Below are positions 2,875 through 58,015 of a stretch of 64,000 bases of DNA, piece by piece. Position 1 is the first letter of the stretch. The number at the start of each line of letters is the position of its first letter. A program made the position numbers and the translations under genes. Source of the DNA: Deltaproteobacteria bacterium RIFCSPHIGHO2_01_FULL_43_49 (GTDB lineage Bacteria > UBA10199 > SPLOWO2-01-44-7); contig MGRG01000012.1 in the NCBI GenBank assembly GCA_001798075.1, positions 91,852 through 155,851 of the forward strand, written 5' to 3'. Below the pieces are notes generated by a model. That model was not told where the DNA came from, did not search any database, and worked only from the letters and a program-made list of their open reading frames with translations.

Positions 2875-3382
2875 AGAATCCAATCGCTCTCTTGGGTTTT
2901 AGGGGTGGTGGTTCCATGAGTTGTCGAATGGCGTTGAATAAGGAACGGATATGGGTGTCATGTTGAGCAACTTTCTGCTCTATTTCATTTAGTTTTCTAA
3001 AGAGCTCTTTGTGTTGAGATAACATCTCTCGCATTTTTACAAAAGCCCGGACTACATAAATGCTGACCTCGACGGCTCTTTGGCTGTTTAGAATAGATGC
3101 CGCCATAACTGCTCCATGTTCTGTAAAGGCATAGGGTAACCCTTTGTAAAACTTTAGGTTTTTGAGGTGGTCACAATTTGTGACCAGTTCATTTTTCTCT
3201 TCCTCAGACAATTGGATTATGAAATCTTGTGGAAACCGCTGTCGATTGCGCTTCACCGCTTGGTTAAAGACCTTAGTTGGAACCCCGTAGAGCGTCGCCA
3301 AATCAACATCCAGAATGACCTTTTCTCCACGTATGAGAAAAATCCGGTGGGTAATGTCTTCAGTCGGAATCAAATCATTCAT
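2849..3382 (-). CDS. ORF6N-domain protein (phage-associated putative DNA-binding protein)
   Basis: IRGEKVILDVDLATLYGVPTKVFNQAVKRNRQRFPQDFIIQL...LPYAFTEHGAVMAASILNSQRAVEVSIYVVRAFVKMRE matches the ORF6N domain pattern as I recall it. Confidence 0.7.
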   Translation of the reverse strand: MNDLIPTEDITHRIFLIRGEKVILDVDLATLYGVPTKVFNQAVKRNRQRFPQDFIIQLSEEEKNELVTNCDHLKNLKFYKGLPYAFTEHGAVMAASILNSQRAVEVSIYVVRAFVKMREMLSQHKELFRKLNEIEQKVAQHDTHIRSLFNAIRQLMEPPPLKPKRAIGFFSIFLAYL

Positions 3383-3547
3383 GGTTTCTTCTTAAGCAAA
3401 CCGTGTGCCAGTTTTAACGGTGTTAAAATGGCTTTGGTAGTGAGTAGGTGACCGATTTGAAGCAGCTACTGACGGGAAATTGGCAGGCAAGCCATGGTTG
3501 ACTTAAAGCTAGTGTCATGACAAAAAGCGCAAATCTTGGAGGTCTCT

Positions 3548-4705
3548 ATGAATGAAGCTGTGATTGTCGCTGCAGTACGCTCACCAATGGGAAGGGCTAA
3601 CAAAGGACAGTTTATCCACACACGCATTGATGACTTAGCAGCCGAAGTGATTCGTGCTGCACTTGCCAGAGTTCCGCAGATCAAACCGGAAATGGTTGAA
3701 GATGTTTTGATCGGTTGTGCGATGCCGGAAGGGGAGCAGGGCCTCAACGTTGCCCGCAACATCAGTTTTTTAGCCGGCATTCCTTTTGGTGCCGGCGCTG
3801 TGACGGTGAATCGTTTCTGTGCTTCCTCTTTAACAACAATCAATATGGCTGCCGATGCGGTTTTGAGTGGCGGGGCCGATATTTGTGTGACCGGCGGGAT
3901 CGAATCGATGAGTCATGTTCCGATGGGCGGGTTTAATCCAAGCCTCAATGAAAAACTTTTTGGTGATGGAAAACCGGCGGCCTACATCGGAATGGGAGAG
4001 GTCGCAGAAATTTTGGCAACAAAATATAAAATTTCTCGTGAAGAACAAGACAGATTTTCCCTCGGCTCTCATCAAAAAGCAATCAAGGCGCAAAAAGAAG
4101 GAAAATTGAAAAAAGAAATTTTGGAATGCTCTACGGTTCAAGCCGATGGTTCGATCAAAAAAGTTTTAGTCGATGAAGGTCCGAGAGAAGATACGACACT
4201 TGAAAAATTGGCACAGTTGAAGCCGGCCTTCAAGGCCAATGGTACAGTGACTGCAGGAAATTCTTCACCCCTCACCGATGGAGCGGCGTGTGTGATTGTG
4301 ATGTCGGCTGCCAAAGCAAAACAGCTTGGAATCAAACCTTTGGCGAAAATTAGGAGTTGGGCAGTGGCCGGAGTCGATCCAGCCCTCATGGGAATTGGTC
4401 CTGTGGATGCTGTGCCGAAAGCGTTAAAGAAAGCAGGGATGAAACTCTCCGATGTTGATTTGTTGGAACTCAACGAAGCTTTTGCTGTCCAGGTCTTGGC
4501 GGTATCGAGAGATTTGAATTGGGACATGACGAAACTCAATGTCCATGGGGGCGCGATTGCTTTGGGTCACCCGCTAGGGTGTAGCGGTGCTCGAATCATG
4601 GCAACCCTCCTCAATGCCTTGGAAATCTACAACAAGGCGATCGGCCTGGAGACATTGTGTGTCGGCGGCGGCCAAGGTGTGGCGACCATTGTTGAAAGAC
4701 TATAA
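3548..4705 (+). CDS. fadA: acetyl-CoA C-acyltransferase (thiolase)
   Basis: Thiolase signatures (VAAVRSPMGRANKG, NRFCASSLTTINMAADAV, C-terminal GLETLCVGGGQGVATIVE). ATG at 3548 with GGAGG 5 nt upstream; the track start at 3536 is TTG. Confidence 0.9.
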   Translation: MNEAVIVAAVRSPMGRANKGQFIHTRIDDLAAEVIRAALARVPQIKPEMVEDVLIGCAMPEGEQGLNVARNISFLAGIPFGAGAVTVNRFCASSLTTINMAADAVLSGGADICVTGGIESMSHVPMGGFNPSLNEKLFGDGKPAAYIGMGEVAEILATKYKISREEQDRFSLGSHQKAIKAQKEGKLKKEILECSTVQADGSIKKVLVDEGPREDTTLEKLAQLKPAFKANGTVTAGNSSPLTDGAACVIVMSAAKAKQLGIKPLAKIRSWAVAGVDPALMGIGPVDAVPKALKKAGMKLSDVDLLELNEAFAVQVLAVSRDLNWDMTKLNVHGGAIALGHPLGCSGARIMATLLNALEIYNKAIGLETLCVGGGQGVATIVERL

Positions 4706-11723: not shown

Positions 11724-11874
11724 AGCGAGTGGCTTGTATCTTAAACTCAAAAGGTAGTCACTACCTTTCTGTAAATTTTACCAAAAGGTAGCGTCTACCT
11801 TTTGATGATGCGCTGCAGCAATTTAATGCGGGCCACCTAGCAACATTCCTTACTTTCTGTCGATAAGGATAGTG

Positions 11875-14800
11875 ATGTTAAAACACCTCCATTTTTTGCT
11901 GATTCTTGGATTGACGACCCTCACTTTGACAGCTTGTCCCGACAACAAACTGGGTGTCAGTGGCGGAACCTCTCCCAATTTGGTTGGCACTCCTGAGACC
12001 GTTCTTACCATCAAAGATTCTTCGCAACTTATTGGTGGTCCCAACGCTCAAGGACGCCTCGGCGATGTTTTGCTTTCCAATTCAAAAATCAAAGTCATTA
12101 TTCAAAAGCCAAATAAGTCGGCAGGGATTGGATCTTTCGGTGGCACGATCATTGATGCCGATCGGGTTCGATTTGGTGGGGAAGGGGCTGATCGTTGGCA
12201 AGAGCTTTTTCCTCTCGTGAATGTGGAGTGGACCGTTAATTATTTTACCTACGGTGTTTTGGCGGATGGCTCCGATGGGGGAGCACAAATTTTGCGCGCT
12301 CAAGGGATCATTGATGTTTATGATTATCTCGATTTGGATTTCATTGCTGATGCCGCTTCTGCAGTGCTCAACCAACAAATCACTTTTGCCGATCGCTTTG
12401 ATGACAGAAGAGATCCCTTCAATATCGATCCCAATCTCAAAGATCTTTATGCAGGGGTAATTACTGAATATCGTTTAGATCCAAGTGCCAATCATGTGAA
12501 AATCGAAACAACCTTCACGAATCCTTCGGACCACCCCATCTCCATGCCCATTGGTGATTTTTTGGTCGGGGGTGGTGAGTTGCAACTCTTGATTCCAGGA
12601 ATCGGTTTTTCTCCTGCTCCCACAATGCAGTTGGGGCAAAACACGCCGGCGATTATTTATGCCGGTTTTCCAGGTGTCGATGTCTCTTACGGCTATTTTT
12701 ATGACCCTTCTTCTTTTCTCCAACCAAAGGTTGAGGAAGATGAAGAAGAGCAATTTTATACTACCACTTCTGTGAGCTACGCGGGGCTCACCGGTGTTTT
12801 GCTCGGGGAAGAATTTTTAAAGATTTTACCTTTGGGAAGTCACGCTTCCCCCGAGGTTCATTTTACGATTCTTCCAAAAAGTGAACGAACAATCACTCGT
12901 TATTTTGTGGTGGGGGATGGCTCTGCCGGGTCTGTTTTGGATGAGGGGCTTAAAGTTTTGAAAGTACCAACCGCTAGCTTATCTGGACAAGTTGTCACGC
13001 CAAATGGAGCCTCCATTGAGGGAGCTACCGTGGCGGTAAAAAAATTGGGAGGGGGAACAATCGTTACCTACACTAGCGATGCCGAAGGTCGTTTTTCAGG
13101 ATTGCTCCCGACGGGTGAGGGAAAAGTTGGAAAACTTTTTGGCGATGGCAAATATGAACTGTGGGTGGACAAAAAGGGTTATCATGAAAATGAAACCGTT
13201 CGCGCTGGGAATTGTGCCCCTTCTCAAATTGATTTGACGAAACTCAGTGGTGCACAAATCGTTTGTAAACTTGGAGAAACAGGTTTTGTGAAACTAGCGG
13301 GTGGTGTGACAGACGCCGCAACAGGCTCCAATATACCTGCGAGACTTACCATTATTGGTCAAGACCCTAGTCCAGAGACAGCCGGTTCTGGAACTTTTTC
13401 CGACACTGATATTTTTTCTAAACCTTTTGGAGTTGTTGATGTGGAATTTGTAAATGCCAAAGGGACATTTGGTCTCACGTCGAACGATTATATGGAGCTA
13501 GAGCCAGGTTTTTATCGTTTTGTTTTTTCTCATGGGACAGAATATTCGGTGGTGGAAAGGGATGTCAACGTTAATGCTGGTGGTGCAGTGACGTTAGAAC
13601 AAATTATTTTAAAAAAAGTAGTTGATTCAAAAGGGTTTGTCTCATCTGATTTTCATATTCATGCGTTGCCCAGTGCCGACAGTGCTTTCAGCATTGAAAG
13701 AAGGGCCTTGGCGGCAGCAGCGGATGGGCTCGATGTTTTGCAAAGTTCCGATCACGATTTTTTAACAGATTATGCGCCGGTGGTGGCAAAACTTATCAAA
13801 GAGGGAATTTTAAAACCAGACAGTATTCAAACACTGGTGGGTGATGAAATTACTCCCAATCATTTTGGTCACATTCACGCCTTTCCACTGACTCCCAATT
13901 TTGATGATGTTGATCATGGGGCCATTGATTGGTCCTCGCATAGTTGGGATGAAATGTCTCCCGCACCCGATTATGTTCTCTCGCCAAAAGAAATTGTAGC
14001 CAAAGCGCTTCAAGATCCTGGTGAAGAGGTCATTCAAATTAATCACATTGCCGATAGTTCTTTAAGTATTCCGGTGGCGACCGGTTGGCTCACCACACCC
14101 ATTTATGAAAATAAATTTAAAATCCCTGCCTTTGTTTCTTACGCTGATCCCATCGAGAGACGCTTGGCCGCTCCAACAGACAGAGCGCCAGCTCCTCCTT
14201 ATGGCATGGGTGCTTCCGATCTCATTTTGGACACCTTCACGGCGATGGAACTGACCATCGGCCCTGAAATGAATGGAAATGCCCTCTGGGAGGTGGCTCT
14301 CCCCACCTGGTTTAATCTTCTGAATTTAGGTTTGGCTCCCACCGCGACCGCTAATTCCGATAGCCATCATGAAATCAAAGTACCATTGGGCATTCCCAGA
14401 AATTTTGTGGCGATGGATGTCGACCCCAGAGACGGTTTGAAAGATAGCTTTGCTGCAATTAATGAAGAAGTTTACGCACATAATATTAATGATCGAAAAG
14501 TCGTTGTCTCCGCAGGGCCTTATATTTCAATGACTGCTTTCAATGCCGATGGAGGTGTAGCGGGTGTGGGAGAAATAATTAAGGGTAATTCAATCCGTTT
14601 TGATATCGAAGTACAAGCTCCCAGTTGGGCCTGGTTTGATACGATTGAAATTTACGCCAATACAGAGCCATTGCCTGCAGAAGACTCAGGTCGTTTTGCC
14701 TTGAGAGATGAGGCAAGTGATCCTGCGCAATTTGCAAAGCCCTATCATATCCCTCATTATATTTATGATTCGGTTAAGCGGTACAAACTTTCTGACGGGA

Positions 14801-15171
14801 CATTAAAAAATTGGTCTGAGAAAGATGGTAAAATTACGGCAAAAGTGGAACTGACCATCAATATAAAAGAAGATACTTGGGTTGTGGTAGCGGCGAGAGG
14901 GACACCCAGCACAGAAGGCTATCGATCGTTGTTTCCAATCGTCCCTGTTGTTTTGAAGGATCCCAAGGATCCCCCAAAGGATTTTGATCCGACCCAGTTA
15001 GAGGAATTTCACAAAGATAAGAAAAAAGTGGGTGGTGCTGCCTGGGCCTTCACCAACCCCATTTTTATCGATGTCGACGGTGACACCGATCAAGACGGTT
15101 TTCCCTTTGAAGCCAAGTGGGTGCGAGAGGGATATTCCAAGTTAAAACCCTTTGTTCAGACAAAGCAATAG
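11875..15171 (+). CDS. large lipoprotein with carboxypeptidase-regulatory-like and PHP-like metal-dependent phosphoesterase regions
   Basis: Lipoprotein signal (LTLTAC); SLSGQVVTPNGASIEGATVAV...DAEGRF is CarbopepD_reg-like; FHIHALPSADS...GLDVLQSSDHD and NSDSHHE resemble PHP-domain motifs. Confidence 0.65.
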   Translation: MLKHLHFLLILGLTTLTLTACPDNKLGVSGGTSPNLVGTPETVLTIKDSSQLIGGPNAQGRLGDVLLSNSKIKVIIQKPNKSAGIGSFGGTIIDADRVRFGGEGADRWQELFPLVNVEWTVNYFTYGVLADGSDGGAQILRAQGIIDVYDYLDLDFIADAASAVLNQQITFADRFDDRRDPFNIDPNLKDLYAGVITEYRLDPSANHVKIETTFTNPSDHPISMPIGDFLVGGGELQLLIPGIGFSPAPTMQLGQNTPAIIYAGFPGVDVSYGYFYDPSSFLQPKVEEDEEEQFYTTTSVSYAGLTGVLLGEEFLKILPLGSHASPEVHFTILPKSERTITRYFVVGDGSAGSVLDEGLKVLKVPTASLSGQVVTPNGASIEGATVAVKKLGGGTIVTYTSDAEGRFSGLLPTGEGKVGKLFGDGKYELWVDKKGYHENETVRAGNCAPSQIDLTKLSGAQIVCKLGETGFVKLAGGVTDAATGSNIPARLTIIGQDPSPETAGSGTFSDTDIFSKPFGVVDVEFVNAKGTFGLTSNDYMELEPGFYRFVFSHGTEYSVVERDVNVNAGGAVTLEQIILKKVVDSKGFVSSDFHIHALPSADSAFSIERRALAAAADGLDVLQSSDHDFLTDYAPVVAKLIKEGILKPDSIQTLVGDEITPNHFGHIHAFPLTPNFDDVDHGAIDWSSHSWDEMSPAPDYVLSPKEIVAKALQDPGEEVIQINHIADSSLSIPVATGWLTTPIYENKFKIPAFVSYADPIERRLAAPTDRAPAPPYGMGASDLILDTFTAMELTIGPEMNGNALWEVALPTWFNLLNLGLAPTATANSDSHHEIKVPLGIPRNFVAMDVDPRDGLKDSFAAINEEVYAHNINDRKVVVSAGPYISMTAFNADGGVAGVGEIIKGNSIRFDIEVQAPSWAWFDTIEIYANTEPLPAEDSGRFALRDEASDPAQFAKPYHIPHYIYDSVKRYKLSDGTLKNWSEKDGKITAKVELTINIKEDTWVVVAARGTPSTEGYRSLFPIVPVVLKDPKDPPKDFDPTQLEEFHKDKKKVGGAAWAFTNPIFIDVDGDTDQDGFPFEAKWVREGYSKLKPFVQTKQ

Positions 15172-15214
15172 TCCTTCCTTGCTGCACTCTGAAATTTAAG
15201 CTATTTTGGCTCGC

Positions 15215-46465: not shown

Positions 46466-48046
46466 ATGGCTGAGAAGTGTCAATTAATTAGTAAATTATC
46501 AGTGTCACCCTCCATACTGCTCGGTAGTTTTCTTTATGATATCAGCAAGTTAGGTGGAAATCCTGGGGAGCTAGACACCTGTGACCTAAAGGTTTTCCAA
46601 AAGGAATTGGGTATTTCTTTGCCCCAAAAAGCATTTCTCGACAAATTTGGAAAAGGGGATTCGTTTAAACTCATTGAAGCCTCTGAATTTCTTTATAATC
46701 AGTATTTATATGCCCCCAACAATAAATATTATGCGTTTTACCCCAAATATTTCAGCAATCAGACCCATGCGGATCTCGCAGAAGTGGCTCTTCGTGACCT
46801 AAAAACGACCCTGGAACCTATCGTCGAAGTAGGAGTCCTCAAAAAAATTCCTATCTACGAGCGCATCTTGAAAGAACCGGCCCTGGCAGAATGGCTTTCT
46901 GTTGATGAAAAAGAAAAAATTGGAGCAGACATTGCAAAAATTCGTGAACTTTTTGAAGAAAAGAACTGGAAAGACCTCTACCCCCGCATGGACACTTTTG
47001 AAGTATCTCTCCCTGATTTGTACGAGACGATTAGCCAACGAGCTCAGGATAACGTTAAATTTTGGGAAAGGGCTGTTGTTGCAACGGAAGTTGTTCACAA
47101 TGTGTTATTTATCGGGGCCGGTGTTGCAGTGGGAATCGTTGCTGGCCCTGTGGCAGCTGTTGGTGCGACACTGGCATTCGGTTTATCTTCCCTCGCCTCC
47201 GAAGAAACTGCCAAAGCTATTTCACAAGATGACTATACATGGCAAAATGCTTTGAAATCTTTTGGCTATCACGCACCGTTTGATATTATCAAAAGTGCCG
47301 CTTTCCTATTTCCGCCACTCAAGGCTGCAACCATCTTTGTGGGAGCCACTTTTGTGGAAGTTGCGGCAGACCCATTTGGAGAACCGAAACCTGTTGTTGA
47401 CCGTTTGATTGATGGAGGTTTTTCAGCTCTGGTTGCAGCGGCCACTTTTTTCGTTGGGAAAAAAGCCGGCGAAAAACTGGGGCCTTATTTTGCAAAATAT
47501 TTTAGAAGAGCCATCCAGCCAGTTCCGGAGTCACCTCAACTTGTCAGACCAACAGTTGTTGAAACTCGAACGGCTACTTCTCCCTCGCCACCTGTTGAAC
47601 CGCCTCCTCCAAAAATGGAAGTGGAGCCTGCACCGCCACCCCCCACCCCCAAACCAAAAAGGGTCGAAGCCAGACCCAAAAATGGTGGCCCTAATGGAGC
47701 ATCGCATTCAGAGAAGGTCTTGCACACCATCAAGAAAACACGATTTGCAGAAGATTGTTTTGAAAAGCTCACACCGTTGGTTAAAGGAAAAATGGAGGAG
47801 TTTGTTGCAACACTCGTTAATAAATTAAATTTCGGAGTTCCTATTGCAAAAATTGCTAATGTCATGCGGAACAAGGATTTCGCCGGTGTTTGGGAAGGAC
47901 GTTTCATGTCTGCTAGCAATGCGAGAGTCTATTTTAAAATCACCGATGATCCCAATGGTTCCAAAATAGTTGAGATTCTCGGTTATTCTTTAGGAGAAGC
48001 CGATCGCATTGCTATTTTACAGCATTTTGCTGGTGGGAGGCATTAA
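46466..48046 (+). CDS. operon gene 1: membrane-type protein with Gly/Ala-rich hydrophobic segments, Pro-rich linker and RelE/ParE-like C-terminal domain
   Basis: ATG 46466 with AGGAGAGG RBS; hydrophobic segments (VLFIGAGVAVGIVAGPVAAVGATLAFGL; FSALVAAATFFVG); linker SPSPPVEPPPPKMEVEPAPPPPTPKPK; C-terminus AGVWEGRFMSASNARVYFKITDDPNGSKIVEILGYS resembles the RelE/ParE toxin pattern. Confidence 0.6.
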   Translation: MAEKCQLISKLSVSPSILLGSFLYDISKLGGNPGELDTCDLKVFQKELGISLPQKAFLDKFGKGDSFKLIEASEFLYNQYLYAPNNKYYAFYPKYFSNQTHADLAEVALRDLKTTLEPIVEVGVLKKIPIYERILKEPALAEWLSVDEKEKIGADIAKIRELFEEKNWKDLYPRMDTFEVSLPDLYETISQRAQDNVKFWERAVVATEVVHNVLFIGAGVAVGIVAGPVAAVGATLAFGLSSLASEETAKAISQDDYTWQNALKSFGYHAPFDIIKSAAFLFPPLKAATIFVGATFVEVAADPFGEPKPVVDRLIDGGFSALVAAATFFVGKKAGEKLGPYFAKYFRRAIQPVPESPQLVRPTVVETRTATSPSPPVEPPPPKMEVEPAPPPPTPKPKRVEARPKNGGPNGASHSEKVLHTIKKTRFAEDCFEKLTPLVKGKMEEFVATLVNKLNFGVPIAKIANVMRNKDFAGVWEGRFMSASNARVYFKITDDPNGSKIVEILGYSLGEADRIAILQHFAGGRH

Positions 48047-50418
48047 TGACCACTATTAATTTTGGCTTTATTGAAGCAGCCATCACTGCAGCCCAGGCAG
48101 CCCAAGCGGCTTCTAATAGGGCTGAATTAGATGCCGCATTGGAAAAATTGGGGAGGGCGATCCATCCCCTGGATACCTTTGCTGATGGCAATCTATCCCC
48201 CTTGGTGGAAAGGCTGACGAGTGGTAGAAGAGCTGTCACTGAAGCAGAACTGAATCAAGTTATCAGGACTATCAACGATGCCGGGGATAAATACCGGGCA
48301 AGTTCAGGCACAAAGGAATCAAAAGCCAGCAGTGCGCACACAGGGCACGGTGTTCATGGAAGCCCCAATCCTTATCTTATTCAAGTAGGTCAGTCTAAAA
48401 CTTTTTCCCCGCGCCCTAACCAAGCCTACATCGCACGGAAAGCAGTGAGCCATTTTAGAGAAGAACACAGAGGTTTTTTTCGCCTCGATACAGGTGAGGG
48501 TAAAACACCAACATACGGATTCATCATTCAAGAACTTCGCAAAGAACTTCCCGATGAATACCAAGAGGCACTTGTTGTCATGGGTTGCCATCAAGCAGAA
48601 CCCGCTCGCAAATTGGCAGAGACGATGAAACATATGTTTCGTGATGAAAAAATCATGTTTTTAGAGGGAGGTATTGAAGCAGAAGATTTTAAAAGAGTTA
48701 CTTTTGTGGTGGGGACCTATCAACAACTAGCACAAAAATCGAGTATTGACGTTTTGAAAGAATGGGCTGGTCAAAAAAGAATTCTTTTTGTCTTGGATGA
48801 AGCGGACATGGTTGTTTTCAAAGGTATTGCAGAAGATGAACATCGAATGGCTACTTGGATTCGTCTCTTGATCGACTTTGGAGTCTTTACACAACATGGG
48901 CATTATCTTGCCAGAACACGGCATCGACTGTTGGGGGCCTCTGCAACCCTTGATCGCCCTGATGAAATTTCTCTCTCAACTGTTTGGGGTCCTGGAAATG
49001 TTTTCTATCATACACCGATGGCAGAGGGGGTTCGGCGCGGCACTCTTGTGCCCGTGGTTGGTCATGTCTTAGAAATGGATGTTCCAGAAAAAGAAAAACA
49101 TCTCTTCAGGGATTTTACGAAGATTGTGGATGGTAAGATTGTGGTTGATAAAACAAAAGTGATGTCTGCCTGCGGCAGTGATCATGCTGTTAAAACATCG
49201 GTTCGAGCTGTGATCGATCATATGAAGATGAAGATTGGTGCTGGAACGACAAAGGGTGAAGCAGTGCGGCGTGGGATCGGTTATGCCATGGACACCACTG
49301 CCTTGGAAAAACACATGCGCTGGCAGCAAGAATTATTTGGGTTGGTAGAGGTTATTTTCCAAATTTATCAAGGCTTGGCTGCATCAAAACCAATGCATGT
49401 TGATACAATCCTCGCTCATCTTGGTGGTCTGGAGAAACTAGATGCGTTTGGTCAAACTTTAAAACGGTTTCTCTATGCTAGAGAATGGAAAACGGTGGAA
49501 TCCCTTTACAGAAAGGCGGTCAGTTCTTTAAAAAATGGGAGAAAAGAAGGTATTTCGGAATTGTTCACTACTCTCTATTCTATTTTGAATGTTGATGTTC
49601 GCAGAATCAAAGGAAGACCTTTGGTGGCCACGGCTGTCTGGCAAAGTATGGACATGGATCGTGAAGGCAAAAAAATTCCTCGTGAGGCTCGTCGCACTCA
49701 ATATCTCAACAAATTTGGTGATCGGGAACTAACGATGAAGGGCTTCAATGCTGGGGTGATCGACATGCTCTGGAGCATTGGGATGTTGGACAGAGGTTTC
49801 GACGAACCGATGGCAAGCTTAATTGTTGATAATGCCCCTAGTTCATCGAGAAGAGAAGTGGTGCAAAGGGCAGGCCGTATCATGCGACCACCCGACCCCA
49901 AAAATCCTAAAGATCATAGTCAAAAACCAGAATCTATTTATATTACACTGACACCCAATTTGGAAGCCCACCATCTCGATGTGGCCAGAAAAGATTTAGC
50001 CCGAGTTTTTGGTACCGAAGTAGATCCTGAGCTCAATATCATTAAGATTCGCCCTACCAAAGAAGGGGATTTTGAGTGGCGTACTCCCGATCCTGTTCAA
50101 CTTGATTTGGGAGGTGATAAAAAAGTCCATTTAGTGTTGGTTGGGGCTAGAACCGTGGAGGCATTGGTTCATTTTTTAAAAGGACGTTATGGGAAAGATT
50201 ATGATCCCGAAATTTTGGCCTTCGATGCCGGTGTTGGGGTTGAAGAAGTTGATGATTTATTGCGGGCCATTCGTTTTCCCAAGGAATCCAGATTACGTGC
50301 CTTTTTAAAAAATTGGCGTGCCGATGATGCAACAATCCACCAAATCATGGCAATCTATCACTCCGATCTTGCCGACATGAAAACGGTCTATGGTAACGCC
50401 TGGAGGATTGTGCAATGA
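48046..50418 (+). CDS. operon gene 2: SF2 helicase / ResIII-type ATPase
   Basis: Motif I LDTGEGKT (about 48490), motif II LDEADM (about 48796), motif III SAT (about 48934), motif VI QRAGRIMRP (about 49861). Start overlaps the gene 1 stop by 1 nt. Confidence 0.75.
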   Translation: MTTINFGFIEAAITAAQAAQAASNRAELDAALEKLGRAIHPLDTFADGNLSPLVERLTSGRRAVTEAELNQVIRTINDAGDKYRASSGTKESKASSAHTGHGVHGSPNPYLIQVGQSKTFSPRPNQAYIARKAVSHFREEHRGFFRLDTGEGKTPTYGFIIQELRKELPDEYQEALVVMGCHQAEPARKLAETMKHMFRDEKIMFLEGGIEAEDFKRVTFVVGTYQQLAQKSSIDVLKEWAGQKRILFVLDEADMVVFKGIAEDEHRMATWIRLLIDFGVFTQHGHYLARTRHRLLGASATLDRPDEISLSTVWGPGNVFYHTPMAEGVRRGTLVPVVGHVLEMDVPEKEKHLFRDFTKIVDGKIVVDKTKVMSACGSDHAVKTSVRAVIDHMKMKIGAGTTKGEAVRRGIGYAMDTTALEKHMRWQQELFGLVEVIFQIYQGLAASKPMHVDTILAHLGGLEKLDAFGQTLKRFLYAREWKTVESLYRKAVSSLKNGRKEGISELFTTLYSILNVDVRRIKGRPLVATAVWQSMDMDREGKKIPREARRTQYLNKFGDRELTMKGFNAGVIDMLWSIGMLDRGFDEPMASLIVDNAPSSSRREVVQRAGRIMRPPDPKNPKDHSQKPESIYITLTPNLEAHHLDVARKDLARVFGTEVDPELNIIKIRPTKEGDFEWRTPDPVQLDLGGDKKVHLVLVGARTVEALVHFLKGRYGKDYDPEILAFDAGVGVEEVDDLLRAIRFPKESRLRAFLKNWRADDATIHQIMAIYHSDLADMKTVYGNAWRIVQ

Positions 50419-51725
50419 GTGTAAGTGTTGTCACTCCTGCAGGATATGTTACCGGCCTACTTGGTAATCTGGAGACCCTAAGTGTTGCCGGTCAAGAATC
50501 AGACATTGCAGAGGTCTTAAACGATTTATTTCCTCAAGTAGATCGTCTTGGTAATGCTGAACTTGGACAGCGTTTAAAAAAAGTAGCAACCGCGTTGCAA
50601 AATGGTGATTATAAAAGAACTCAATGGTTACAATCTTCATTATATCGTGAACTCACTGATCTTCAAGCAGCACTCCAAAGTGGTCAAGCTATTGAAGAGG
50701 CATTGCAAGCAAGACAAGCTGCTCAAGCGTTAAAAAAAATAGAAGGACCAGGCGGCGGGCGATTTACCTCTTCCATTACTGCAAGACCAGTTCAAAGAGT
50801 TTCTGTTGGACCACCACCAGTCATTGAATGGGAGAAGTTTGGATCTAGAAGGTATCCTGCACCGCTCCCCCCAAGTGAAGAGGTGAATACAGCGGGCAGA
50901 CGATTGGCTTATGTTGTCAGTTACGTTGCCGGAATGGCAGGTCATGGGGAATTCACGGCTGATACAGAAGATTTTTATAGCATCAGTTCTGAGATGCGCA
51001 GACGTATCGAAAAAGCGTTATTCGTTCCCAAAGCATTGGGCCAGTTTCCAACACGGGATGCAAGATCGATTATTATCAAAGCCCATCAATTAGAGCCGCT
51101 TTATGGAAGATTAGTTCAAGAACTTCTGATCCAATCTATTTTTGAATCACAGGGTTGGTCGTTGGGCGTTCCACTCTCCGATGCCCCGTGGGATCTCTCT
51201 TTTTTGTATGCCTTGAGACGCTATGGTGCGATGCAGTTGTTGGCCTCCGAAGAGAAAGCAAAAGAAGTGTCGGAAGACAAAGCGCTCATTCGCGTTGTGC
51301 AAGGCAAAGTCAGTTTGGAAGCGGTGAACTGGCATCCAGGCAAAACCCGTCGCGAAGTTTTTGAGCCTTGGTTACAAGGGATAGCCAGCAGAAATGGTAA
51401 CAATGAAAAACTTTTAGAGAGACAACGCAAATATATTGGCGATGGAATTTTGCGTGCAACAAATTGGCAGCCTCCTCGCAATGGCGCTGGTTGGGAGCCG
51501 CAACTCCAATGGATGGTCAGGCGCTGGATTGCCCATTTTCATTTTGGTGCTTTGCCGGCCCGGGGACTTCCATTTAAAACCGATGTGATCATTCGTTTTG
51601 CAATGGCGAAACACCCAACAAAACTAGATTTAACTTTTGCGAGAGCTTTGTTGGCCATGATGCGTGATTATTATTCAAAGGCAGAATTACAAGCCATGGG
51701 GGATTTTATACCGAGGGATAAATGA
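50415..51725 (+). CDS. operon gene 3: hypothetical protein (436 aa)
   Basis: 4-nt overlap (ATGA) with the helicase stop; no recognisable motif. Confidence 0.6.
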   Translation: MSVSVVTPAGYVTGLLGNLETLSVAGQESDIAEVLNDLFPQVDRLGNAELGQRLKKVATALQNGDYKRTQWLQSSLYRELTDLQAALQSGQAIEEALQARQAAQALKKIEGPGGGRFTSSITARPVQRVSVGPPPVIEWEKFGSRRYPAPLPPSEEVNTAGRRLAYVVSYVAGMAGHGEFTADTEDFYSISSEMRRRIEKALFVPKALGQFPTRDARSIIIKAHQLEPLYGRLVQELLIQSIFESQGWSLGVPLSDAPWDLSFLYALRRYGAMQLLASEEKAKEVSEDKALIRVVQGKVSLEAVNWHPGKTRREVFEPWLQGIASRNGNNEKLLERQRKYIGDGILRATNWQPPRNGAGWEPQLQWMVRRWIAHFHFGALPARGLPFKTDVIIRFAMAKHPTKLDLTFARALLAMMRDYYSKAELQAMGDFIPRDK

Positions 51726-54700
51726 GTATTGTTATCTCAAGGGGTTTAGCAGCACTTCAGTCTCAGATGGCAGAAGGTCTTGCCCGACTAACAGCTGACA
51801 ATGCCGCACTTTTTCAACCAGATTCTTCGTCTTCTTATGAAAACCCTGCTTTGTTAGCTGCGCAACGTTACACAAAAGAAGAACCAAGGAAAATTTCGCC
51901 CGGCATTTTCCTTCACGACATGCACGGGGCCTTGAAAAAAGTTGCCGGTTCTCGTTTCGTTGCTAAAACTCCAGAGAATGAAGACAAAGCATTTTTAAGG
52001 GCTATCGTGGGTGGTCTTTCCCTCTTTTTGGGGAAAATGGACGCGCAAAGTGAAACAGAGATTGCAGGAATGGTAGATCAAGTAATCTCGCAGATTGCAG
52101 ACCCTGCCATTCAAAAGCTTATTTTGGGTGCCGGCATTGCATTGCCAACTTCTTCCACAACGTCTGTAGCTGTTTCAGCTCCTTTAACGGTCTTGCCACC
52201 TGTTGTAGCCGCACCACAACCTCCTGCTCCAACTGTTGCTGCTCCTATCACGACAACTCTTACCCCTTTTGACTATCATCCAAACAGTGAAGAGAGGTTG
52301 GATGCTGAGTTTGAATATCGTCTCGCGAATGTTCACCAGCGCATTCAAGATGCAAATATTTCCTGGCCCTATGATTTTGTCAGATGGTGTCGCTCCCTTT
52401 ATCTTTTGGCAGGTGAGTTGCCAAATGGAGATGCAGCAAGGGTACGTGGAAATATCACCCGTGGTTTAAGAAGAATCAACGAGTTAGCCTCCATCAGTGT
52501 CGAAGATATTCGTCGCCTGTTAGGTCCTTCTGCGATGGCAGTGGGTCGTTACCCCGAAGGAATTTCGCAAGATTGGCCACGAGATATATCCAATGATTTT
52601 GGTTCTGCCATTATTGCTGTCCACGATGTCGGTGAAACTGTCATTGCCAACAAAGCAGCCCTCCTCTGGAAGGCAAGCACTGGCTTAGAAAATCAAGATG
52701 AGATTAGAGGTGATTTGGTTTCGATCCTGCGTCGTTTCGAAATAGCTTTGTTATCGGGAAGAGAAACAGATCATGAGGAAATAGAAAAAGCGCTTGATGA
52801 AATTGCGTTGAAAATTCCGGAAGCCAAACGCCCGGAAATGTTCTTAAAGAAAGAAACAGTACCACAGCCTTCACCCATCCCGTTAGAACCCATGTCGCAA
52901 GCAGAGTGGGTACAAAAAAGTTTGGATTTTTTGGTTTATGAAAAATCAAAATGGGGAAGTATGGAAGGAGAACTCTCCAATCAATTAGAGCATCTTTTTA
53001 AATTATTGAAAGTCGAAGAGGCTTTAGCACCACGTGCACCAGAGCTGTTGGGATTGGCATTTCAACTGATGTTATCTTATCGCCAGATGGTGGGGGTATC
53101 CGGAATAGAAGCTTTGGCATTGGGTAAAGATCCCAGCCTACCGATCAGTTTTGAAGACAGGGCTAAAGCCTTTGACATGATGAAGGCTGCCCACAACCAG
53201 CTCGATCTTCTTCAAGAGTGGGGTGATGCCTATAATAAAGATCCAAAAGCTTATCAACCGTTGTTCGGTGAAAATGGTCTTGCCGAAATAGTCTCTCGCT
53301 ACATCGTTCATGCTCGAGGAGGATCCCAAAACCCACTTGAAGAAGCGAGTGGAAATTTTGTTCAAGCACACCCTGAGTTGAAACTTTCAACTGCTATGGC
53401 CCGCAGGTTACTATCCTATTTTGTTGGGCTAACAGATGGAACTTTTAACGAGGCTTTCTTACAAGAAGTGTTAGGGGCCAAACCTAAGGCTCAAGAAGCG
53501 GCTGGACCAGAGCTTGATTTAGAAAATACCCCATTTTTGGATGTTGATCCAAATAAATACACTCCCTATGGGCGCGTTTTTGGAAAAGTTGTTCTGGATG
53601 GAGGAGTCATCCGAGTAGGCGGTGGCAAAAATAGACCTGGGATCTTTTTTGGGATTTATTTGACAACCTTAGAAAAGATTTACCGAAAATACCGTGAACA
53701 AGTTCGCACATCCGGTAGCAGTAGTTTCGAGTCGGCCTATACATTGGCCGTGAAGCAGGAAAAATATCAAGAAAGATATAGAAAAGACTATGAAAAATTG
53801 TTTGGGGATCTTCTTAGATTGCTGGGTGAAAATAAGGATATGGCCGATTTGGTGGAAACAGCAATTTTGTCTGGTAAGACTCAGTTAAAGGTACCTGAAA
53901 AGCAAGCAATACCTACAAGTGGCGGCCCTCCCATGGAACGACCTGTGGAAGAGGCGCCTACTGCAGCGCTAGCGCCAACACCAGCTCCAGTTTCAGTACC
54001 ACCATCGGTTGAAGTATCGAGACCAGCTGCAACAAGGGTTGATGAAGCCGTCTTTGCCGGTGCCGCACTCGTTTCACCCGATGCTCCTCCTGCCGAAGCT
54101 AACCCCTTTATCGAAGCAGCTGCAATAGTATCAGAGTTTGTTCCACCCCCAGCAGAGGTAGTTGTATCTTCAGGAGTTGCCGTAGTCGAAGTGCCACCAC
54201 CTGTTGAAACAGCGACAATTCCAGCGATCGAAGAAGAAATATTAATTGTAGATGAAGTAGAGGTAGAAACATTTCCAGCGATTCTAGCCCCCTATATTAC
54301 TAAATGGTCCCTGGGTGAAGTTGAGAAAAAAGTATTGCAAGATATGTGCGCGGTAACTTCACCAGAAGCTGTTTTGAAAGCTCTGGATAATATTGAACAA
54401 AACAGTTGGGAGAGTGAGGAGCGAAAAAGAAAGATTCTGACAGAATATGCAAGGGCTTTAGAACTTGGAAGAATAACAGAGAGAGGTAAAAAAAGAGTTG
54501 TAGAGCTTCTGGCCTCTAAGGAAAATTTTGGGAGGGTGAGACTTCTCCTATCTGTTGCCGCTGCAAAACCGACCAGTCTGGTTTTGGATCAGATTATTCC
54601 AGACCCCATTCAGTTGGGCAAAAAGGGGGGGCGATATCTAGATATTGACTTTAAATCTTACCCTCCTGTAGCTGTGGTTCGGCCTGCAATCACTCTTGCA

Positions 54701-57145
54701 GAAGGATTATACGAAGAAATAGCCGTCATGCCGAGTGGGCGTTCCGTATTGATTAGAGGACCTTTTAAAGGGGATGCCATTGATATCGGAATAGATCACG
54801 GGCAGCTCCAGAAAGGGATCGGTGGTCTTTTAGGTGAATTGGCAAGGGCTCAAGGGGCCATTGAAAGTGGCGCGCGAACCTCTCTCTTGCTCCTCGTTTT
54901 TAACGAAAATGGCATGACACCGCGTGCCCGAAAATACTTTTTTAGCCAGCACCCTCAAGGCACTTTGATTGAATGGTATGGAAACACTTTTAGTCGGTGG
55001 TCTTTAGAAAAATATGACGATGAAATTATGCTGCAGGAAACCCGTTTTGATAGAGAAGGGAATAAAATTTCTGAAAAACTTAATTCTATTGAAACATTCG
55101 AAGGAGAAGTAGAAGTTCATTTTGTTACAGCCAATGATCGCAATCCCCACACGGAACGCCTGATAGAAAAACCAACCACGCGAGCAATTGAAGATTTAAG
55201 GGCGATGGGAGAATCCAAAGAAGCGATTCGTTTGAAAGTTGTTCGGGATGCGGCCATTAACGCCGTCGGTTTTCTCAATCCCAATCACCCCGATGCAGAT
55301 AAAGTCATCGAAGTGGCTAAGAAGTTTGGTCAATCTCGTCTTAGTAAGAGACAAATTGTTGAATTGAAAGAGGAGCTGGATGCAGTTGTCATTGAAATAG
55401 AACATCGCTTTGACTCCACAATACCTCCTAAAGCTGTCGAATTGGCAGCCCTTGTGGGTGTAGAAAAATTAACTCAGTTGCTGACAATAAAAGGAATCTC
55501 TTCTGAAAATGTCGATGAATTGATCCATCACCTCTTGGTTTTAAAAACCAAGTTCAATGGAGAAGTCATTGTCAAAATAGTCGATCAATTGTTGGAAGTG
55601 AGTACAAAAAATCTCGCCCACTTTACAACACTTCTCAACCGCCTTGCTCAACTAGAAAGACTAGTAAGACAACGGGGTTTAAACATCACCGATATCACTT
55701 TAAAACCAGAAACCCTTTATGGTGGATGGGCCCTGACTTTGGATGGAAAGGTCATCTTGATCGGTTCTACTAAGGGGGAACCTTTTCATGTCCCATTCCC
55801 ATTGGGCGGGACAATGAAACAGGCTGAAGGGATTGCCGGAGCTTTAGCTCCCAATTTCGAAAGGGTAGAAGATGCGATTTTAGAAGGGAATGTGAGTGGC
55901 TTGCTTTTAATGTTGGTTGGAGAAGATGGAATTACCGAGCAAGGTAGAGACTCACTTTGGACAACCTTTGGATCCGATGCAGAAGTCTGGGTTCTCAAAA
56001 TAACCAATGATCAACAGGCCGATCATTATATCTTCAAAAAGAATAAAGAGGGCCCTTTGGCCGAATCGCTGGGAGAAGAAATTTATGAGGTGATCTCCTT
56101 TGCTCGTGAAGAAGAAGAAATTAAAATTGAAAAACTGGAACGAAAAGAAAGCCGTCAGGTCGTCAGTCCACTTTTGCTTGCAAAAAGAATTCTCGGTGTT
56201 GTGAAGCCCAAACCTTCTCCAGAGGGTGCACCAGCAAAGAAGCGTTGGGAACACATTGACGCGGATTTTGCAAAAATCTTTGCTGATCATGAGGTTACTG
56301 CACAACAAATTTGGGGACCTTTGAGCGAAATTGTGAATGATGAACGTGTTTTGAAAAAAGGAGATGCATTTATTGATTTGATGGAGTTTGCCGATCAGTT
56401 AAATGGAACCTTTGAAGCTCATTTAATGCCAATGAGTGCCTTGGCAACGGGAATTCAAATTGGAGAGCCCGTTTTTCCGGGAATAGACTTGCTCAAATGG
56501 AGAGATTTAATCGAAACTTCGACATTAGGAATCCAAGAAGCACTGTTTGATCTTAGTGACACAGAAGAAGAGGGAATCGCAAAAATCGTAAAGATTCCCC
56601 AACATCTGCATGAGTTTCATCTTTTGCTTCATCAGATTTTGATGGTTGAACTAAACGGTTATCGCAACCTCCTTAATCGGTTAGACAGTGTGAAGGCTTC
56701 AAGCGACATCCCGCCCGATTTGGCAAGACAAAAGGAATTGATTGAAACACTTCGAGGGCGTGCTGCAGATTTGGGAAAATACCTGGGGGCCGATTTCTTT
56801 AAAGAGCTCAATAAGATTCGGACCATCATGCAAAACAGAATCAATTACTTTAATGAAGTGTTGAAACCCAAGATTTTTGAATTTCAAACGAGGGATGATT
56901 TGGAGCTTCCTTCTTCGAATCCAATAACATCCGACCTCTATGCTTTTGTGGATAAATATGGTTTTAAACGGGGAAGGGAGGCAGAGCATGGAGTTCTCTT
57001 TGTAAATCCAGCTACAGGAATAACCGTAAATCTGCCCTACGACGATAAAGGTCTTGATCCACGCACGATGAAAAACTCCAGATCGGATGCTATAAAAGCT
57101 GTCGAAGAATCTTTGCGTAAAGAAGGCCGCATGCCCCCTGCTTAG
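51722..57145 (+). CDS. operon gene 4: giant hypothetical protein (1,807 aa) with Pro/Ala/Val-rich linkers and an internally duplicated ~95-aa module
   Basis: 4-nt overlap with gene 3; low-complexity linker at about 53910-54250; paired modules at about 54730-54990 and 55740-56000 share GxxxLLxLVxExGxT; no catalytic motif recognised. Confidence 0.65.
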   Translation: MSIVISRGLAALQSQMAEGLARLTADNAALFQPDSSSSYENPALLAAQRYTKEEPRKISPGIFLHDMHGALKKVAGSRFVAKTPENEDKAFLRAIVGGLSLFLGKMDAQSETEIAGMVDQVISQIADPAIQKLILGAGIALPTSSTTSVAVSAPLTVLPPVVAAPQPPAPTVAAPITTTLTPFDYHPNSEERLDAEFEYRLANVHQRIQDANISWPYDFVRWCRSLYLLAGELPNGDAARVRGNITRGLRRINELASISVEDIRRLLGPSAMAVGRYPEGISQDWPRDISNDFGSAIIAVHDVGETVIANKAALLWKASTGLENQDEIRGDLVSILRRFEIALLSGRETDHEEIEKALDEIALKIPEAKRPEMFLKKETVPQPSPIPLEPMSQAEWVQKSLDFLVYEKSKWGSMEGELSNQLEHLFKLLKVEEALAPRAPELLGLAFQLMLSYRQMVGVSGIEALALGKDPSLPISFEDRAKAFDMMKAAHNQLDLLQEWGDAYNKDPKAYQPLFGENGLAEIVSRYIVHARGGSQNPLEEASGNFVQAHPELKLSTAMARRLLSYFVGLTDGTFNEAFLQEVLGAKPKAQEAAGPELDLENTPFLDVDPNKYTPYGRVFGKVVLDGGVIRVGGGKNRPGIFFGIYLTTLEKIYRKYREQVRTSGSSSFESAYTLAVKQEKYQERYRKDYEKLFGDLLRLLGENKDMADLVETAILSGKTQLKVPEKQAIPTSGGPPMERPVEEAPTAALAPTPAPVSVPPSVEVSRPAATRVDEAVFAGAALVSPDAPPAEANPFIEAAAIVSEFVPPPAEVVVSSGVAVVEVPPPVETATIPAIEEEILIVDEVEVETFPAILAPYITKWSLGEVEKKVLQDMCAVTSPEAVLKALDNIEQNSWESEERKRKILTEYARALELGRITERGKKRVVELLASKENFGRVRLLLSVAAAKPTSLVLDQIIPDPIQLGKKGGRYLDIDFKSYPPVAVVRPAITLAEGLYEEIAVMPSGRSVLIRGPFKGDAIDIGIDHGQLQKGIGGLLGELARAQGAIESGARTSLLLLVFNENGMTPRARKYFFSQHPQGTLIEWYGNTFSRWSLEKYDDEIMLQETRFDREGNKISEKLNSIETFEGEVEVHFVTANDRNPHTERLIEKPTTRAIEDLRAMGESKEAIRLKVVRDAAINAVGFLNPNHPDADKVIEVAKKFGQSRLSKRQIVELKEELDAVVIEIEHRFDSTIPPKAVELAALVGVEKLTQLLTIKGISSENVDELIHHLLVLKTKFNGEVIVKIVDQLLEVSTKNLAHFTTLLNRLAQLERLVRQRGLNITDITLKPETLYGGWALTLDGKVILIGSTKGEPFHVPFPLGGTMKQAEGIAGALAPNFERVEDAILEGNVSGLLLMLVGEDGITEQGRDSLWTTFGSDAEVWVLKITNDQQADHYIFKKNKEGPLAESLGEEIYEVISFAREEEEIKIEKLERKESRQVVSPLLLAKRILGVVKPKPSPEGAPAKKRWEHIDADFAKIFADHEVTAQQIWGPLSEIVNDERVLKKGDAFIDLMEFADQLNGTFEAHLMPMSALATGIQIGEPVFPGIDLLKWRDLIETSTLGIQEALFDLSDTEEEGIAKIVKIPQHLHEFHLLLHQILMVELNGYRNLLNRLDSVKASSDIPPDLARQKELIETLRGRAADLGKYLGADFFKELNKIRTIMQNRINYFNEVLKPKIFEFQTRDDLELPSSNPITSDLYAFVDKYGFKRGREAEHGVLFVNPATGITVNLPYDDKGLDPRTMKNSRSDAIKAVEESLRKEGRMPPA

Positions 57146-57573
57146 GCCTTTTCCCTTTTGGCGAGGTAGTCCAACACAGATTTGGCAAAGAGTTCGAAGT
57201 CGCTTAGATGTTGCTTAAGAACGCTATAAATTTCTTTGTCATCCGTTTCCCAATAAAGATGCACCAAGCGGTTTCTCATTTTTGCCATTTTTCGCAATTT
57301 TGTGAGAAAGCCCTCGGTGACCACTCCATTTTCCACGAGTACTTTAAAGCTGTCGGCATAGTCCTTTGGCGCTCTAAAGCCAAATCTGGAGATGAGATGG
57401 TTTGTCAAATCAAGACATGTCTCTAAAGCATATTGGAGATTGAGGCGAGCGCTGTCTTTTTTCATCGCATCTTTTAGGAAATCAGCCTCAGAAAATGCGC
57501 CGAGTTCTTTCAACTTTAAAACATATTGACGAAGCCGATCTACGAGCATTGTTACTTTTTTTATATCAACCAT
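57142..57573 (-). CDS. hepT: HepT-like (DUF86) toxin
   Basis: Rx4HxY motif (RNRLVHLY) near the C-terminus; overlaps the upstream MNT gene by 8 nt. Confidence 0.8.
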   Translation of the reverse strand: MVDIKKVTMLVDRLRQYVLKLKELGAFSEADFLKDAMKKDSARLNLQYALETCLDLTNHLISRFGFRAPKDYADSFKVLVENGVVTEGFLTKLRKMAKMRNRLVHLYWETDDKEIYSVLKQHLSDFELFAKSVLDYLAKREKA

Positions 57574-58015
57574 GCGTCAACCCTTGTTCGCGAATCGTTC
57601 GCAAACGTTCCGAGCAATAGTTATCGATAAAAAATTTGAAATCAAAATAATGTTTGCGTGTTCGCTCTTCATAATTTGCTCGTATAGTATCCGAAATTGC
57701 GTAGAGTAATTTGCCGTCTGTGATTACTTTTCCTTGAAAATCAAGAGGGGCATCATTGATAATTCGAACATCAAACTCAAACGTTGGAAAGGAACCTTCC
57801 AAAAGGTCTTCGATCTCAATTTCAAAATCCCATCGATTCTTTCCAAAGTGTTTTGTATTAATAACCAAAGCAATATCGACATCACTAAGGGGCGTGGAGT
57901 TGCCTGTTGCGTAGGAACCATGCAAATAAACAAGTTCCAAAAAGGAATTTTTTTTTGCTAATTCTCGGAAGGCCCTCCCCAAATTTTCTTTATCCTGAGG
58001 TTTCATGACACTCAT
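57566..58015 (-). CDS. mntA: MNT-type nucleotidyltransferase antitoxin
   Basis: Nucleotidyltransferase motif LHGSYATGNSTPLSDVDIALV immediately upstream of hepT. Confidence 0.8.
   Translation of the reverse strand: MSVMKPQDKENLGRAFRELAKKNSFLELVYLHGSYATGNSTPLSDVDIALVINTKHFGKNRWDFEIEIEDLLEGSFPTFEFDVRIINDAPLDFQGKVITDGKLLYAISDTIRANYEERTRKHYFDFKFFIDNYCSERLRTIREQGLTHG

Follow-up and report, generated by a model that had tools for sequence, protein, structure and literature searches.

In the genome of Deltaproteobacteria bacterium RIFCSPHIGHO2_01_FULL_43_49, a gene for a superfamily 2 (SF2) helicase overlaps its neighbours at both ends, which raises the question of whether it encodes a housekeeping enzyme, a member of one of the known defence systems or the motor of something else. 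The gene lies within a stretch of 64,000 nucleotides (nt), which was analysed as a whole and is referred to here as the window (contig MGRG01000012.1, positions 91,852 to 155,851). Our results indicated that its product is very probably an active motor of the ResIII type, with the protein encoded immediately downstream, by gene 3, as its partner.

An intact ResIII-type motor encoded among overlapping genes

The helicase gene and the three genes that adjoin it, referred to as the cassette, are the following.

46466..48046, + strand: gene 1, a poorly conserved upstream gene (526 amino acids, aa, from its ATG)
48046..50418, + strand: SF2 (ResIII-type) helicase/translocase (ATG start, 790 aa)
50415..51725, + strand: gene 3, the obligate partner (436 aa)
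51722..57145, + strand: gene 4, encoding a giant protein (1807 aa)

The product of the helicase open reading frame (ORF) is 100% identical to a database protein (P0001/OGQ04418.1). A first-pass annotation of this DNA had described it as an SF2 helicase with all core motifs in order; the motif positions, the Pfam matches and the invariant residues bore this out and showed an intact SF2 helicase-type ATPase. Motif I (RLDTGEGKT) occupies aa 146-154 (DTGEGKT, nt 48487-48507), motif II (LDEADM) aa 250-255 (DEAD, nt 48796-48807), motif III (SAT) aa 299-301 (nt 48940-48948) and motif VI (QRAGRIMRP) aa 607-615 (nt 49864-49890), while the motif V region, in the remainder of RecA lobe 2, reads IDMLWSIGMLDRGFDEP. 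Motifs I, II, III and VI thus follow each other in order over two RecA-like lobes, as is characteristic of the SF2 superfamily. Residues G150, G152, K153, D251, E252, D254, A300, T301, Q607, G610, R611 and R614 were invariant among 13 family members, and so was an LDRPD sequence after motif III that represents the R-x-D element of ResIII/XPB-type proteins. The Pfam ResIII model scored 39.2 bits (aa 120-253; cut-off 22.5) and Helicase_C 27.5 bits (aa 559-614; cut-off 23.5), both passing their cut-offs; the DEAD model just passed (28.8 bits, aa 130-303; cut-off 26) and ranked below ResIII. The ORF therefore encodes an intact motor of the ResIII type, of the kind that hydrolyses nucleoside triphosphates.

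The gene overlaps reported in the same annotation were also confirmed. The stop codon of gene 1 and the start codon of the helicase share 1 nt (TAATG at 48044-48048), with a GGGAGG ribosome-binding site upstream, and the helicase stop overlaps the start of gene 3 by 4 nt (ATGA at 50415-50418). A second ATGA, at 51722-51725, links gene 3 to gene 4.

When solved proteins were compared by sequence profile, archaeal XPB/Rad25 came out among the nearest (E 1e-7, over motifs V-VI only), together with XPBII and two enzymes of type ISP, LlaBIII and LlaGI; the structural neighbours were HsdR, Snf2/INO80, CSB, SauUSI, XPB, Mfd and RadD. The top neighbours by both sequence and structure are double-stranded DNA translocases. 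The PHROGs collection returned a generic "DNA helicase" match, NCBIfam returned only a spurious AcsD match and TIGR04095 (dnd_restrict_1), the latter scoring 38.8 bits where the cut-off is 600, and PADLOC returned only partial matches to PbeA (E 1e-12 to 3e-4), the best of them over the roughly 60 residues at aa 558-619. No NCBIfam equivalog of the housekeeping RecG, RhlE or RecQ type matched. A check by hidden Markov model (HMM) against the SF2 subfamilies, as the annotation had proposed, identified the ResIII type and not HamB, DruE or DrmA: the HamB, DruE, DrmA and ZorD models of PADLOC-DB v2 gave no match at E <= 1, and DUF1998, HamA and other partner domains were not detected in the helicase or the neighbours scanned. 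Since the Pfam and profile matches point to ResIII, and membership tests of every named family failed, we classified the protein as a ResIII-type SF2 motor.

Family-specific additions to the motor

The helicase was dissected on an AlphaFold2 (AF2) model built from the 13-sequence family alignment (mean predicted local distance difference test score, pLDDT, 75), the conservation of each region being expressed as pairwise identity within the family. Five segments were distinguished, given here with their basis in brackets.

48046..48396, + strand: N-terminal helical bundle (aa 1-87) and disordered linker (aa 88-117) (AF2, identity)
48397..49044, + strand: RecA lobe 1 (about aa 118-333), with R123/Q126 and motifs I-III (Pfam ResIII and DEAD; invariant columns)
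49045..49611, + strand: start of RecA lobe 2 (from about aa 334) with a family-specific insertion (AF2, hhalign)
49612..49953, + strand: remainder of RecA lobe 2 (aa 523-636), with motifs V and VI (Pfam Helicase_C; PDB profile matches to archaeal XPB/Rad25)
49954..50415, + strand: conserved linker after motif VI (aa 637-700) and C-terminal helical domain (aa 701-790) (AF2, identity)

Three of the elements listed are private to this family, namely the N-terminal bundle on its flexible linker, the lobe 2 insertion and the C-terminal helical domain. The bundle was modelled as five helices (aa 6-21, 25-38, 40-46, 50-58 and 66-86; pLDDT about 80), followed by a linker whose pLDDT falls below 50 over aa 88-106. 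Conservation is lower here than anywhere else in the protein, with pairwise identities of 28% (bundle) and 21% (linker), compared with 55-61% for the motor. An N-terminal extension had been noted in the first-pass annotation and is indeed present, but its length, put there at about 150 aa, was overestimated: because the motor starts near aa 118, as marked by the invariant R123 and Q126, the extension measures about 115 aa.

Missing from that description was a family-specific stretch of about 190 aa inserted into RecA lobe 2, which comprises a beta/alpha part (about aa 345-416) and then a helical domain (aa 417-522). The model is confident here (pLDDT 85-97 over aa 380-530) and the helical domain, with pLDDT above 90, retains 48% identity within the family, compared with 61% for the remainder of the lobe (aa 523-636). 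The insertion is missing from the nearest outgroup protein, P0177, where hhalign opens a gap over these columns, and from ordinary ResIII relatives, in which RecA1 and Helicase_C are contiguous. At the other end, the linker at aa 637-700 was poorly modelled by AF2, and about 175 aa beyond motif VI (about 180 in the earlier account) are kept in the family at 46-52% pairwise identity (46% for the C-terminal domain). This last region is also common to the outgroup proteins P0033/P0177 and P0034-P0041, whose matches reach about position 800 of the 819 in the profile. None of the bundle, the lobe 2 insertion and the C-terminal region matched anything in Pfam or among PDB sequences. The parts that had been described as lacking recognisable similarity do so with respect to these databases, but the stretch after motif VI is conserved within the family.

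A rare family always encoded next to gene 3

The cassette was compared across 11 loci, comprising the window and ten others (L001-L010). A gene 3 homologue directly follows the helicase in all 11, and a gene 4 homologue of 1800-2400 aa comes after gene 3 in the window, L001, L002, L005, L007 and L009. Thus the helicase never occurs without gene 3, to which it is translationally coupled, and in most loci the giant gene 4 accompanies them. Full-length collinear homology of the helicases, covering the N-terminal bundle, the RecA2 insertion and the C-terminal domain, with a gene 3 homologue downstream in all loci, defines a family of helicase plus gene 3. For gene 1, L009 alone supplied a clear homologue. 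What is conserved is therefore not the operon of four genes but the pair of helicase and gene 3, to which gene 4 is usually added. It was nevertheless reasonable to call the helicase the enzymatic core, as it is the only one of the four proteins with a recognisable catalytic domain.

The family is very small. A word-indexed search of 5.8e9 protein clusters returned 14 helicase homologues, full-length and collinear, with 41-57% identity, together with 12 homologues of gene 3 and 4 of gene 4; the 13-sequence helicase alignment shows 40-57% identity over 99-100% of the length. An exhaustive HMM scan of 1.84e9 representatives found 8 full-length clusters and 2 fragments, after which the E value jumped from 5e-175 to 7e-42. 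All 8 full-length clusters derive from metagenome genomes of uncultivated "Deltaproteobacteria". The first outgroup consists of P0033/P0177, followed by P0034-P0046, ResIII helicases of 1000-1700 aa that also come from "Deltaproteobacteria" metagenome-assembled genomes. P0034-P0046 share RecA2 and the region after motif VI with the helicase, at least 3 of them are stand-alone genes, and the best PADLOC models for P0034-P0040 were mREase_IV and REase_I.

Within the first outgroup, P0177 (MDO8527467.1, 910 aa) aligns to positions 123-805 of the helicase profile (hhalign E 3e-33) and has neither the N-terminal bundle nor the inserted helical domain (aa 417-522). At its C-terminus, aa 716-881 were aligned by hhalign to aa 128-299 of gene 3 (probability 86%, E 4.7e-6), and hmmsearch, within the set of proteins gathered in this analysis, also matched it to gene 3 (6.7e-7). 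By these alignments, the nearest outgroup carries the helicase and a gene 3 domain on one polypeptide. This fusion is the strongest evidence in our analysis that the two proteins act as one physical unit, and it suggests that the helicase and the gene 3 protein bind each other.

In the gene 3 protein, a bundle of helices at the N-terminus (aa 8-109) is joined by a Pro-rich, disordered linker (aa 106-130) to a domain of about 300 aa that is all-alpha. It was considered as a Bax1-like nuclease and rejected, being all-alpha with no Bax1 or nuclease fold, and a fold search against viral structures returned nothing significant. L003 and L004 each harbour two diverged gene 3 paralogues (25% identity), those of L003 at 12586-15182. 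A 1898-aa protein encoded upstream in L003 was discarded as a gene 4 equivalent, as it showed no HMM similarity.

The variable partners, gene 4 and gene 1

Gene 4 is conserved over roughly its first 1230 aa and varies towards the C-terminus; the protein also contains Pro/Ala-rich linkers. A domain of about 110 aa is internally duplicated (aa 990-1101, nt 54689-55024, and aa 1325-1431, nt 55694-56014; pairwise BLASTP E 5e-8, 29% identity). No match to gene 4 was found in Pfam, PADLOC, NCBIfam, PHROGs or PDB. L001 (13538-15784, 15712-22434) contains an extra copy of the gene 4 N-terminal module, and L002 (20473-22463) encodes an additional protein that has about the first 190 aa of gene 4 in common with it. 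At the other end of gene 4, roughly the last 80 aa (...YGF...AIKAVEESLRKEGRMPPA, window 56900-57142) are kept in the window, L007 and L009 and not in L001, L002 or L005. This C-terminus looks HicA-like by eye only, Pfam being negative, and a HicA-like domain was rejected after Pfam, NCBIfam, PADLOC and PDB all proved negative.

The N-termini of the helicase, gene 3 and gene 4 were also compared. A docking domain common to the three was rejected as unproven, given that hhalign E values (0.002-0.01) were matched by reversed controls (0.003-0.004), and HMM cross-searches among the N-terminal bundles gave nothing significant. What the three N-termini have in common is only their architecture, a bundle followed by a disordered linker.

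For gene 1, the mechanically called ORF starts at a TTG (46436); a AGGAGAGG ribosome-binding site precedes the ATG at 46466, which is more likely to be the start. The protein comprises one strongly hydrophobic segment rich in Gly and Ala (aa 213-253, numbered from the ORF start), a Pro-rich linker (aa 361-420) and a small C-terminal domain of about 110 aa. Its sole clear homologue, in L009, occupies the same position (25% identity, E 2e-38), and there was no match in Pfam, NCBIfam, PADLOC, PHROGs or PDB. A motif of the form G-[VT]-W-E ... FK[IM]T ... EI[LI] was noticed in the C-terminal domain (window 47702-48043) and recurs upstream in L009 (about 1080-1354) and L007 (about 3270-3552), in the latter by eye and in a MAFFT alignment. 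The domain resembles RelE/ParE by eye only, and the tests lent this no support: a RelE/ParE-like toxin domain was rejected on negative Pfam, NCBIfam, PADLOC and PDB results, and hhalign against RelE, YoeB and ParE, a weak test with approximate toxin query sequences, scored no better than reversed controls. The label of "toxin-domain protein" given to gene 1 in the first-pass annotation thus has no backing in Pfam, NCBIfam, PADLOC, PHROGs, PDB or hhalign.

Chromosomal site and neighbouring genes

The same site, with a flavoprotein gene on one side of the cassette and aminotransferase, coaD and rsmD genes on the other, is common to the window, L007 and L009 (GC content 0.44, 0.56 and 0.49, respectively). 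Between the window and the other two, the flanking genes are 64-80% identical, the helicase 51-56%, gene 3 47-48%, gene 4 38-42% and gene 1 25% or less. The cassette therefore evolves faster than its flanks, and it is also modular. Modularity is seen in the two gene 3 paralogues of L003, in the extra gene 4 N-terminal modules of L001 and L002, and in L006 and L010, where gene 4 has been lost or replaced. Clear orthology to a housekeeping helicase in conserved housekeeping synteny had been named beforehand as the observation that would argue for an ordinary cellular enzyme; housekeeping synteny of the site was found in three genomes, yet the helicase has no housekeeping orthologue. When metagenomes were scanned for an empty site, using the SHOCT lipoprotein encoded nearby as query, all contigs recovered were 1-3 kb long.

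Next to the cassette lies a toxin-antitoxin pair, and two further ORFs of the window were recorded.

57142..58015, - strand: HepT (57142-57573) and MNT (57566-58015) toxin-antitoxin pair (Pfam HepT-like 2e-32, Polbeta 5e-18)
591-2003, - strand: 470-aa ORF, no Pfam match
11872-15171, + strand: 1099-aa ORF, CarboxypepD_reg domain only

The HepT/MNT pair is convergent with gene 4 and overlaps its 3' end. It has a GC content of 0.398, compared with 0.44-0.455 for the cassette, and is missing at this site in the syntenic L007 and L009; we regard it as a neighbour of the cassette, not a proven component. Pairs of this HEPN/MNT kind border the cassette in 4 distinct locus arrangements (the window, L002, L006/L010 and, with two copies, L008), at differing positions and with only 22-40% mutual identity. 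Within the 283 kb of DNA fetched, a small sample centred on cassettes, MNT genes occurred only beside cassettes, which is suggestive of an association. In L006 and L010 the place of gene 4 is taken by an HEPN/MNT pair and an AAA_14/DUF4143 gene, joined in L006 by a gene for a 1026-aa AAA protein and then a HicB-like antitoxin gene. AAA_14/DUF4143 ATPase genes were seen near the cassette in L006 (7942-9210), L010 (9380-10648) and L008 (739-1908), and another, in L013 (2857-4062), accompanies a stand-alone gene distantly related to the helicase. Otherwise the window carries ordinary housekeeping genes, namely those for beta-oxidation, alanine dehydrogenase, tgt/queA, secDF, recJ and a glycosyltransferase of the GT20 family (trehalose-6-phosphate synthase type).

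What the cassette may do

Our preferred reading, offered tentatively and with somewhat less than even confidence, is that the cassette is a defence-like module for nucleic-acid surveillance, undescribed so far and restricted to one lineage, with the helicase as its translocase core, and not a core housekeeping machine. A defence-like role is suggested because the motor is of the restriction type, the components show a gradient of divergence and modularity, and toxin-antitoxin and AAA_14 genes lie nearby. In such a module, the helicase and gene 3 proteins would form a stable complex in which the motor would supply ATP-driven translocation or remodelling on nucleic acid. The substrate would most likely be double-stranded DNA, since the nearest structural neighbours are HsdR, Snf2/INO80, CSB, SauUSI and XPB. 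Gene 3 might act as an adaptor or regulator, and the fast-evolving giant gene 4 protein, plus gene 1 where present, might supply target recognition or an effector activity, with the weakly conserved N-terminal bundles on their flexible linkers as candidate docking modules. A more specific version, in which helicase, gene 3 and gene 4 constitute an undescribed multi-protein machine for anti-invader or genome surveillance without known effector chemistry, appears doubtful to us. Such a machine would couple a ResIII translocase to two novel folds, of which one would be a hypervariable sensor or effector of about 2000 aa, and would be confined to an uncultivated groundwater/sediment lineage and repeatedly associated with HEPN/MNT modules.

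It should be considered that several observations speak against a defence-like module. The occupation of one site in three genomes of differing GC content points to a long history of vertical inheritance, and defence systems are not usually inherited in this way. The GC content of the cassette (0.44-0.455) equals the genome background and no flanking repeats were found around it, which together indicate that the cassette is old and vertically inherited in this sub-clade; nor did a search for tRNA and Rfam elements reveal signs of a mobile element. No homologues of the helicase were found in phage, plasmid or viral-contig collections. In the cassette proteins, library scans detected neither a nuclease nor a methylase domain, nor any other domain known from effectors, and PADLOC returned nothing beyond the partial, generic motor match to PbeA. 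Finally, the HEPN/MNT association involves few loci and could simply reflect genomes rich in toxin-antitoxin genes.

Several of these observations would fit a lineage-specific DNA-maintenance machine, in which helicase and gene 3 would serve in repair, transcription-coupled events or nucleoid remodelling, much as XPB-Bax1, Mfd, RadD or Snf2-type remodellers do, and the giant protein would be a scaffold. We consider this alternative possible, if rather unlikely. It would account for the stable position among housekeeping genes in three diverged genomes, the native GC, and the lack of mobile-element signatures and of a known effector. The structural neighbours also include CSB, Mfd, RadD, INO80 and XPB, and, as in the archaeal xpb-bax1 pair, the adjacent gene encodes a partner of about 430 aa. 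A maintenance function is harder to reconcile with the extreme rarity of the family, even in the metagenomes of its own clade, with partners that diverge faster than the flanks, and with the loss or replacement of gene 4 in L006 and L010. Moreover, the all-alpha gene 3 protein has no Bax1 or nuclease fold, and no NCBIfam housekeeping model was matched.

It is quite improbable that the protein is an RNA helicase or a remodeller of ribonucleoproteins, possibly acting in concert with the neighbouring HEPN-type RNase toxins. The D-E-A-D of motif II, the S-A-T of motif III and a Pfam DEAD score just above the cut-off are what one would expect of such an enzyme, and HepT/HEPN RNase modules are frequent neighbours. 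However, ResIII outscores DEAD, motif VI is of the QRxGR and not the HRxGRxGR form, LDRPD follows motif III and the top neighbours by sequence and structure translocate on double-stranded DNA, while the toxin-antitoxin pair is missing from the syntenic L007 and L009. Membership of the DEAD-box RNA helicases was accordingly rejected on motif VI, the ranking of the Pfam models and the LDRPD element.

Still less plausible is a toxin-delivery or polymorphic-toxin operon, with toxin domains at the C-termini of genes 1 and 4 and the helicase as an accessory. The RelE/ParE-like and HicA-like appearance of these C-termini by eye, the variability of the gene 4 C-terminal part and the HicB-like gene that follows the large AAA protein in L006 would agree with it. 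Against these stand the failure of Pfam, NCBIfam, PADLOC and PDB to identify a toxin family and of hhalign to separate RelE, YoeB and ParE from reversed controls, the lack of secretion-system genes and immunity-gene arrays nearby, and the poor conservation of gene 1 with the helicase.

That the helicase is a diverged member of a named family (RecG, RhlE, XPB, HsdR, PbeA, HamB, DruE or DrmA) is hardly credible, since the weak partial matches to PbeA (1e-12, about 60 aa), dnd_restrict_1 (38.8 bits) and XPB RecA2 (1e-7) lie far below the thresholds (600 for TIGR04095; 11.8 bits versus 27 for ERCC3_RAD25_C), PADLOC matched none of HamB, DruE, DrmA and ZorD, a clean gap separates the family from other SF2 proteins in the exhaustive search, and the partner genes that define those systems are not present in the neighbourhood.

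If the cassette encodes a functional complex, it would join a familiar restriction- or XPB-type SF2 translocase to two families without relatives in sequence or structure, one of them, gene 4, among the largest proteins of these genomes, and would thereby constitute a new helicase-centred system. If it encodes a clade-specific maintenance factor, it would be a modest addition to the SF2 catalogue. The practical value is limited, given the great rarity of the family and its uncultivated hosts.

Comparison with known systems

Among the closest known systems are the ResIII restriction motors, which include HsdR (type I, e.g. EcoR124I), LlaBIII/LlaGI (type ISP) and the type IV enzyme SauUSI, and which share with the helicase ResIII as the top family and an R-x-D element after motif III. 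Unlike them, the helicase lacks a nuclease domain and has no methylase or specificity genes nearby; it has instead its private bundle, RecA2 insertion and C-terminal domain, and its partners, gene 3 and gene 4, are of unknown fold. Membership of the HsdR family was rejected on the lack of a nuclease domain, the helical bundle at the N-terminus and the lack of a methylase or specificity gene in the cassette, and assignment to DndFGH-type restriction on the TIGR04095 score (38.8 bits, cut-off 600).

By sequence, no solved protein is closer than archaeal XPB/Rad25 (profile E 1e-7), and its layout is alike by position. XPB has an N-terminal accessory domain, the sequence RED after motif III and an insertion early in lobe 2, the thumb, and in the archaeal XPB-Bax1 pair a partner of about 430 aa is likewise encoded beside the helicase. 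In contrast, the sequence match covers only motifs V-VI, the element after motif III is R-P-D and our helicase is about 300 aa longer. XPB/Rad25 membership was rejected on this element, which is not RED, and on the Pfam ERCC3_RAD25_C score (11.8 bits, cut-off 27). Nor does the pair correspond to XPB-Bax1, given that the all-alpha gene 3 protein shows no similarity to Bax1 (DUF790) or to nucleases.

PbeA is a ResIII-like motor that works with several partner proteins in the archaeal Dnd-Pbe phosphorothioate-dependent defence (PMC6459918). The best-scoring alignment of the helicase with it covers only about 60 residues of a profile of some 680 positions, and a scan of the larger ORFs of the window revealed neither dnd nor pbeBCD genes; on the shortness of the match and the lack of dnd/pbe genes among the scanned neighbours, PbeA membership was rejected. 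As to the Snf2/INO80 remodellers, which appear among the structural neighbours, the helicase has no Pfam SNF2-related match, its motifs are ResIII-like and its bacterial host has no nucleosomes.

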